Below, piece after piece: positions 2,019 through 2,247 of a stretch of DNA of 4,588 bases; positions within the stretch are counted from its first letter, which is position 1; each line of letters starts with the position of its first letter. The notes beneath the pieces are model-generated. The model did no database searches. It was given only the letters and a program-made list of their open reading frames with translations, and was not told the DNA's origin. Source of the DNA: a virus (lineage: Duplodnaviria; Heunggongvirae; Uroviricota; Caudoviricetes); the IMG/VR virus record IMGVR_UViG_2700989171_000008; one strand, 5' to 3'. Position numbers and translations under genes: made by a program.

Positions 2019-2038
2019 GTTTAAGTTATGAATGATCG

Positions 2039-2247
2039 CTTTTTTTTGCAAAATTGCTGTGCAGAAATACTAACCTTCGGGCAGGCGATCATTCATAAGC
2101 ACTCTGCTTTTATTCCGATTAACTGTGAGTGGTTTGTTGGATAGAGTGCTTTCCTTATTGTATATATCGTTTCGCCCGCTTTTGCGGTTTTTTCTTTTCA
2201 AATCCCTTTCATTTCTCAGTGTAAAACTACGCCATCCGTTATTTGCG
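2039..2247 (+). repeat. Direct repeat copy 1 (about 209 bp, noncoding) ending at a gap
   Basis: Aligns base for base with 2258-2465 at a constant offset of 218, apart from 5 substitutions (2083, 2084, 2128, 2158, 2187) and a T-run of 8 versus 7. Confidence 0.85.

Follow-up and report, generated by a model that had tools for sequence, protein, structure and literature searches.

A perfect inverted repeat as the probable base of a hairpin in a conserved structured RNA module of lambdoid prophages

A perfect inverted repeat was analyzed in a window of 4,588 nucleotides, the whole stretch of prophage DNA under study. Its two arms probably form the base of a hairpin, SL1, within a conserved structured RNA module, for which a role as a tRNA-operon trailer and late-transcript leader is proposed. 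In the + strand transcript, the arms would pair into a 14-16 bp basal helix of the ~73-nt SL1 (2026-2098). The module would then be arranged in the order of an optional hairpin H0, SL1, a second hairpin SL2 (2098-2150), and an intrinsic terminator (2176-2193), after the tRNAs and before the lysis cassette. In the relatives compared, the helix is kept via compensatory or G.U-compatible changes beyond the level of the controls, which is the generic mark of a conserved structured RNA.

The inverted repeat and its place in the late region

The initial annotation described an inverted repeat with 13-nt arms, TATGAATGATCGC (2027-2039) and GCGATCATTCATA (2085-2097), and direct reading confirmed that they are exact reverse complements. 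A repeat search of the window showed that the perfect repeat is in fact 14 nt long (2026-2039 and 2085-2098), with 100% complementarity and 45 nt between the arms. When the arms are read as + strand RNA, U2040.G2084 and U2041-A2083 are added, resulting in 16 pairs. The left arm, the 5' strand of the SL1 basal helix, was accordingly placed at 2026-2041 on the + strand, where it is perfect over 2026-2039 and reaches 2041 via one G.U pair. The right arm, the 3' strand, was placed at 2083-2098 on the same strand and is perfect over 2085-2098, and both strands show covariation. Of 1000 dinucleotide-preserving shuffles of the whole window, 7 had a perfect inverted repeat of 13 nt as their best, with loops of up to 100 nt allowed, and none had one of 14 nt. 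Because no shuffle out of 1000 reached 14 nt, the inverted repeat is real and is unlikely to be due to chance. The promoter-like hexamers between the arms, TTGCAA (2046-2051) and TACTAA (2068-2073) with a 16-nt spacer, were found at the positions given earlier. On the - strand, the scan called neither a promoter nor a terminator within the repeat, and the fold of that strand was weaker. A 38-aa open reading frame (ORF) that begins in the left arm (2028-2144) was considered as a coding sequence and was dropped because it shrinks to ~10 aa in the HK639 type.

The window covers the late-regulatory region of a lambdoid prophage, with Q, pR'/tR', a tRNA operon, a non-coding stretch, and the lysis genes. 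The ORFs identified by Pfam are DUF968, RusA, Q, a holin (P21-type class II), lysozyme, and Rz, and the non-coding gap between the tRNA cluster and the P21-type holin is ~500 nt in the window. The promoter scan placed a pR'-like promoter at 1456-1484 (TTGCAA-17-TATATT), and the short RNA after it, which has a strong terminator at ~1535-1560 and weak, sub-threshold similarity to isrK/isrJ, is the StxS/IsrK-type transcript expected downstream of Q. A further promoter, that of the tRNA operon, was called at 1628-1656 on the + strand (TTGCAA-17-TATTAT with a GC-rich discriminator, TATTAT-CCTGCGCC), and it is also present upstream of the element in the divergent locus L083 (7367-7395). It precedes the + strand tRNA cluster (1666-1966), which contains tRNA-Ile(CAU), interrupted by an N-run, followed by Lys(UUU), Thr(UGU), and Gly(UCC).

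The window is a scaffold of four pieces, A to D, connected by N10 joins at 1724-1733, 2248-2257, and 2766-2775. In E. coli ECMA0423 and S. flexneri SFBU1023, pieces A and B form one continuous stretch. Piece C (2258-2765) covers the last 207 nt of piece B again, with identical genomic coordinates, and piece D derives from a second prophage. The tandem repeat (2041-2247 and 2259-2465) and the second partial holin (2776-2901) that result from these joins are both false. In the complete genomes and phages examined, the locus is present as a single copy, and the holin starts 292 bp after tRNA-Gly. Where a genome has two copies, they lie in different prophages and in opposite orientation. Since there is one copy per locus and pieces B and C overlap, the tandem repeat is an assembly artefact, and the distinction between a "copy 1" and a "copy 2" made in the initial annotation was given up. 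The supposed second copy (2258-2465, + strand) is a contig from this locus or a sibling of it, which overlaps piece B and was joined by N10. The right arm was indeed found again in it by the repeat search, at 2303-2316 (2303-2315 in the initial annotation), and in complete genomes this sequence type has a left arm of its own (L022, L025). In the piece derived from the second prophage, the interval between holin and endolysin contains a 209-aa ORF (2905-3534) with no Pfam match, which may be a moron within the lysis cassette.

Fold, distribution and covariation of the element

The MFE fold of 1967-2195 (-74.7 kcal/mol, z = -5.4) contains H0 (1973-2018), SL1 (2027-2097), SL2 (2098-2150), and a terminator hairpin (2176-2187) followed by U6. 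SL1 folded alone gave -26.3 kcal/mol with a z of -4.7. Above the basal helix, RNAalifold and the MFE fold predict an inner helix of SL1 (2043-2067, + strand), in which the U-run and GCA (2043-2050) pair with UGCAGAAA (2060-2067). The T-run of the DNA is the 5' strand of this helix and has an A-run as its partner. The helix is closed by a 9-nt apical loop, AAAUUGCUG (2051-2059), in both the consensus and the MFE folds, and its region contains the putative "-35" TTGCAA. The "-10" TACTAA is contained in an internal loop on the 3' side (2068-2082, + strand), UACUAACCUUCGGGC, which is moderately conserved as ACUGACC/ACUAACC. The left arm together with T8 was tried as an intrinsic terminator and rejected, as none was called at 2040-2047 and the U-run pairs within the inner helix.

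SL2 (2098-2150, + strand) follows SL1 with zero spacer and consists of an outer stem (AGCACUCU/AGAGUGCU), an inner stem, and an apical loop. The outer stem is 100% paired, and four of its seven pairs show changes on both sides. The 3' strand of SL2, GGUGGUUUGUUGG, is invariant, also in five relatives that were found without using GGUGGUUUGUUGG. An Hfq-dependent trans-acting sRNA would be expected to have transcript ends of its own, a terminator with a U-tail, a conserved single-stranded seed, and Hfq binding; the element has a terminator with a U-tail, and its most conserved residues are largely paired in the consensus fold. In the window, this terminator (2176-2193, + strand) is weak, with a 4-bp stem (CCGC-UUUU-GCGG followed by U6). 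Stronger versions occur in relatives, either GCCCGC..GCGGGC or CCUCGC-UUCG-GCGAGG followed by U6. A terminator follows SL2 in the window and in the majority of lineages, though not in all of them, and in HK639 it is annotated (L003 3253-3274). A search for duplex partners of the SL1 loop or of the G-rich strand of SL2 elsewhere in the window gave none that was convincing, and no riboswitch-like alternative pairing between SL2 and the terminator was seen by eye.

Between tRNA-Gly and SL1 lies the hairpin H0 (1973-2018, + strand; GUCUUUCAGUC.../...GACUGAAAGAC), with a stem that shows covariation when the E. coli and HK639 types are compared. In L029, L060, L084, and L091, H0 is missing and SL1 directly follows the tRNA. 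The interior of H0, GCGATGATGGGAAATCCCGG, is similar to the variable/T-arm segment of tRNA-Gly and looks like what is left of a decayed tRNA. Independently of SL1, SL2 with a longer stem was observed in other IMG/VR phages (L069, L080, L155, L160, L144, and L177). In three of these SL2-only loci (L069, L080, L160), it lies directly after pR'-tR' with no tRNAs, sometimes as the 5' UTR of the first late ORF. The SL2-only variant had no BLAST match in E. coli genomes and isolated phages and no Rfam family.

The region was found in 536 of the 5426 complete E. coli genomes (~10%), mostly with 95-99% identity, and in four E. coli phages. Among the latter is the Stx phage phi467, in which stxAB lies upstream of the tRNAs. 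The copy of phage HK639 is 76-79% identical. A pattern derived from the loop recovered the element in Phytobacter, Enterobacter, Yokenella, Citrobacter, and Shigella. The first pattern scan of genome contigs returned mostly chance matches in AT-rich genomes, and eight enterobacterial loci were retained. Altogether, the element spans six enterobacterial genera. In all loci examined, it is located after Q and pR'/tR' and before the lysis cassette, while the types of Q and of the lysis genes vary. In the lineages of the window, HK639, and L083, the element is immediately preceded by a tRNA module, and L068 and L124 have a different, tRNA-free upstream flank, with an IS5-like transposase ORF nearby in L124.

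For the comparative analysis, homologues were collected by BLAST and by an SL2 pattern search of IMG/VR, in which the inverted repeat was left unconstrained; the pattern search gave ~200 loci, and 34 distinct sequences were aligned. These contain 19 distinct arm pairs, with 11-16 of the 16 positions paired. The arm pairs are TTATGAATGATCGCTT/AGGCGATCATTCATAA in the window type, TTTTGAATGGGCGCTG/CAGCGCTCATCCAAAA in the HK639 type, and TTTTGAATGAACGCTG/CAGCGTTCATTCAAAA, a perfect pair, in L083. In the repeat helix, 93.7% of the alignment cells are paired and 5 of the 16 pairs have changed on both sides (UA/AU, GC/UA/AU, UA/CG, GC/UA), and RNAalifold predicts this helix independently. For SL1 and SL2 together, 94.9% of the cells are paired compared with 38-44% when the partners are slid, and 9 pairs have changed on both sides; since the sequences share descent, the cells stand for a handful of independent events rather than dozens. 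The covariation score of SL1 and SL2 was attained by none of 500 shuffles, and its unbiased part is the SL1 helix and the four covarying outer-stem pairs of SL2, because the search pattern fixed the 3' strand of SL2. Both arms are kept in relatives that are 76-99% identical, from E. coli, Shigella, Enterobacter, Citrobacter, Yokenella, and Phytobacter to HK639 and IMG/VR contigs. The initial annotation had proposed that a failure of the arms to be conserved together would point to a chance match. On the contrary, the arms are both kept and co-vary, and the feature is therefore functional. A recurrent A.C mismatch was observed at the sixth basal pair of SL1 (equivalent to 2031/2093) in the HK639 type, L156, L196, and L223, and instead of decay it may reflect a non-canonical pair that is conserved.

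The strand on which the structure is formed can be judged from G.U pairs, which become A.C on the opposite strand. The proportion of paired cells on the + and - strands is 98.5 and 83.2% for the SL1 inner helix, 100 and 93.7% for the SL2 outer stem, and 95.6 and 78.2% for the SL2 inner stem. For the repeat helix it is 93.7 and 91.7%, so that the arms alone do not separate the strands. The two figures of the repeat helix are close because the recurrent A.C mismatch reads as G.U on the other strand. The G.U pairs specific to the + strand in the neighbouring helices indicate that the module is an RNA with the same sense as the tRNA and late genes.

Comparison with known RNAs and alternative readings

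As far as sequence comparison goes, the element appears to be an undescribed structured RNA, with no match in Rfam or in the published prophage sRNAs compared. In Rfam 15, no family was found at E<=1 over 1967-2476, with AgvB (RF02702), AsxR (RF02703), STnc100 (RF02076), Esr41 (RF02676), and isrK (RF01394) among the models. At the same threshold, the window and five related loci gave nothing on the element and weak isrK/istR-like matches on terminators only. In HK639, the STnc100 model matches a neighbouring segment and not the element. The late region of lambdoid prophages has been described as a niche of sRNAs (Tree et al., 2014; Zhu et al., 2026). Similar to the element, STnc100/PasD, AgvB/AsxR, and StxS/IsrK are non-coding, occupy the Q/pR'-lysis niche, and each end at an intrinsic terminator; however, the element is longer, far more structured (three hairpins), and different in sequence. 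The Pas sRNAs of EPEC (PasA-D) were compared through their probe sequences (Table S6, PMC8550237), and the best probe matches to the element had at least 8 mismatches in 23-25 nt. The element was also absent from the PP2 and PP4 late regions of E2348/69. The Pas sRNAs and AgvB/AsxR were therefore rejected as the identity of the element, as their published sequences do not match it. A full-text literature search with the invariant sequence strings returned unrelated papers only.

Non-tRNA RNAs at the 3' end of tRNA operons are known from other systems. 3'ETS-leuZ of E. coli is the trailer RNA of a tRNA operon, and the stable RNAs C and D of phage T4 are co-transcribed with a tRNA cluster and have no known function. 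The element resembles them in its position at the 3' end of a tRNA operon, in a release by processing, as would be expected for it, and in ending at a terminator. It shares no sequence or structure similarity with them, its co-transcription is deduced from gene order and promoter position, and, unlike these trailers, its SL2 is also found without tRNAs.

The initial annotation had read the repeat at the DNA level, as inverted sites of a dimeric regulator that bracket a promoter or as a large stem-loop that occludes the promoter in single-stranded form; occlusion by a DNA cruciform was considered with it. The dyad symmetry of the DNA is perfect and the arms taken alone do not discriminate between the strands, as such a model would have it, but the arms vary by lineage and yet stay complementary, including through single changes compatible with G.U, and the repeat sits among helices that are specific to the + strand. 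Half-sites spaced by 45 bp predict conserved sequence and not compensatory change, so the reading as a pair of regulator sites is disfavoured. A nearby regulator, which the initial annotation suggested looking for, was not found besides Q among the Pfam-identifiable ORFs of the window, which leave one 209-aa ORF without a Pfam match. The large stem-loop is best read as an RNA hairpin and not as single-stranded DNA that occludes a promoter, given that the SL1 inner helix and SL2 tolerate G.U on the + strand only and that no single-stranded stage is evident at this point for a dsDNA lambdoid phage. The promoter between the arms did not hold up either. The sigma-70 criterion asks for hexamers 16-18 nt apart and for A and T at positions 2 and 6 of the -10, but TACTAA carries A at position 6, and the scan that called pR' (1456-1484) and the tRNA promoter (1628-1656) made no call at TTGCAA/TACTAA in the window or in L083. 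Moreover, the "-10" varies among lineages (TACTAA, TACTGA, TGCTGA, AACTGA, TAACAA, TACCAA) and the "spacer" AAUUGCUGUG is nearly invariant, which is the opposite of a promoter pattern. Three to four lineages with unrelated distal sequence (L141/L184/L217, L196, and L223) retain the basal stem, a hairpin of 68-75 nt, and the abutment with SL2. Because the stem persists with a wholly different loop sequence, the loop "promoter" is dispensable. Taken together, regulation through these DNA sites or a cruciform is extremely improbable. A related proposal keeps the promoter and makes it that of an sRNA gene (TTGCAA-16-TACTAA, start at ~2080), whose product of ~113 nt would comprise the right arm, SL2, and the terminator; in this scheme, the 5' end of the sRNA would have a complementary partner, in cis or in trans, in the left arm carried by the tRNA or late transcript. 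The hexamers with their 16-nt spacer are present, pR' and the tRNA promoter share TTGCAA as their -35, and TTGCAAAAUUGCUGUG is highly conserved in most lineages. A terminator follows SL2, and the neighbours in the region are sRNAs, namely STnc100 in HK639 and AgvB/AsxR and Pas in other prophages. Nevertheless, position 6 of the -10 is A in every lineage, the better hexamer AATACT would leave a spacer of 14 nt only, and covariation (U-A, U.G, C-G in columns 30/46) marks the runs of U and A around the "-35" as a helix. In addition, L141/L217, L196, and L223 are without the motif and still have the stem, SL2, and the terminator. We consider such an sRNA gene improbable, although a weak promoter role of the SL1 loop is still conceivable. 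The loop motif UUGCAAAAUUGCUGUG is conserved above the level of a mere spacer in most lineages and therefore has some function.

The remaining alternatives accept the structured RNA and differ in what it does. SL1 might be a putative RNase III-type site, where a cut would part the tRNA precursor from the downstream RNA and make the 5' end of an SL2-terminator RNA or of the late mRNA. This is a refinement of the explanation as a trailer RNA and is not opposed to it, and we regard it as unlikely. Hairpins with internal loops serve as RNase III sites in T7 and lambda, and SL1 is likewise a long, irregular hairpin, with ~23-30 bp and an internal loop; in its polycistronic transcript it is flanked by functional RNA units, with the tRNAs on one side and SL2 on the other. 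Its length and helicity are conserved even where the distal sequence is replaceable, and in L196 it has ~26 nearly continuous bp. However, compared with the T7 and lambda hairpins, the internal loop of SL1 is unusually large and asymmetric (15-17 nt on the 3' side in the common type, above the classical size), and a pure requirement for length would leave the strong conservation of the apical motif unexplained. A role in antitermination was also considered, in which the two stem-loops of the nascent leader would bind RNA polymerase in the manner of put RNAs and lead to read-through into the lysis genes. HK639, which carries the element, reportedly uses put RNAs in its early operons. SL1 and SL2 sit with zero spacer in a phage operon leader just upstream of one to several terminators, and the put RNAs of HK022 and HK639 are likewise two directly adjacent stem-loops upstream of terminators in the leader of a lambdoid phage. 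Yet the put RNAs are ~70 nt long, lie downstream of early promoters, and act on the zinc-binding domain of the RNA polymerase β' subunit, whereas the element is ~125 nt long, lies in the late region, and has no sequence resemblance to them. All these phages encode Q for late antitermination, and lysogens should be killed, since the holin would then be driven by the tRNA promoter, which looks constitutive. Directly after the element, most lineages have a conserved terminator, as if marking the 3' end of an RNA. Put-like antitermination is thus very unlikely.

Proposed role and significance

Our preferred reading is that the arms form the base of SL1 in a trailer and late-leader RNA. The tRNA-operon promoter (1628-1656) likely feeds transcripts through H0, SL1, and SL2 in the lysogen, as judged from the gene arrangement, and the module would there be the 3' trailer of the tRNA operon. 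Excision of the tRNAs would free the module, the 3' end of which would be set at the terminator, and the same terminator would also halt transcription from the tRNA promoter ahead of the holin gene. In lytic growth, the late transcript antiterminated through Q would include the module in its leader. In HK639, STnc100 lies immediately downstream of SL1, SL2, and the terminator (L003 3318-3523; Rfam score of 52.6 bits, above the gathering score), and the late leader of this phage is therefore a chain of terminator-ended RNA modules. The SL1 helix may act as a structural or processing element that keeps SL2 in register and shields the ends left by tRNA excision, and it may be cleaved by a double-strand-specific RNase. 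Because the invariant residues lie in SL2, a partner-binding function is likely to reside in SL2 and not in the repeat.

A wider proposal, which we put forward tentatively as possible rather than probable, is that H0, SL1, and SL2 represent an undescribed family of stable phage RNAs across Enterobacteriaceae, co-transcribed with the tRNAs and the late leader. SL2 (GGUGGUUUGUUGG) would be a platform for binding a factor, and SL1, with a variable tip and a fixed length, would be the helix that positions SL2. The factor bound by SL2 would be of host or phage origin, for example RNA polymerase, a ribonuclease, or an RNA chaperone.

The leader between Q and the lysis genes of lambdoid prophages houses Shiga toxin genes, tRNAs, and several regulatory sRNAs. 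An additional RNA module in this leader, supported by covariation and without an Rfam family, is a concrete candidate for a phage RNA with a new function, for example in the processing or stability of tRNAs and late transcripts or in the regulation of the host. The analysis also corrects two misreadings, in which hexamers inside RNA hairpins are taken for promoters and "tandem repeats" are made by scaffolding near-identical prophages. If the proposal of a stable RNA family is true, the element would be more than a passive leader, with a role of its own in the lysogeny-to-lysis programme or in manipulating the host.
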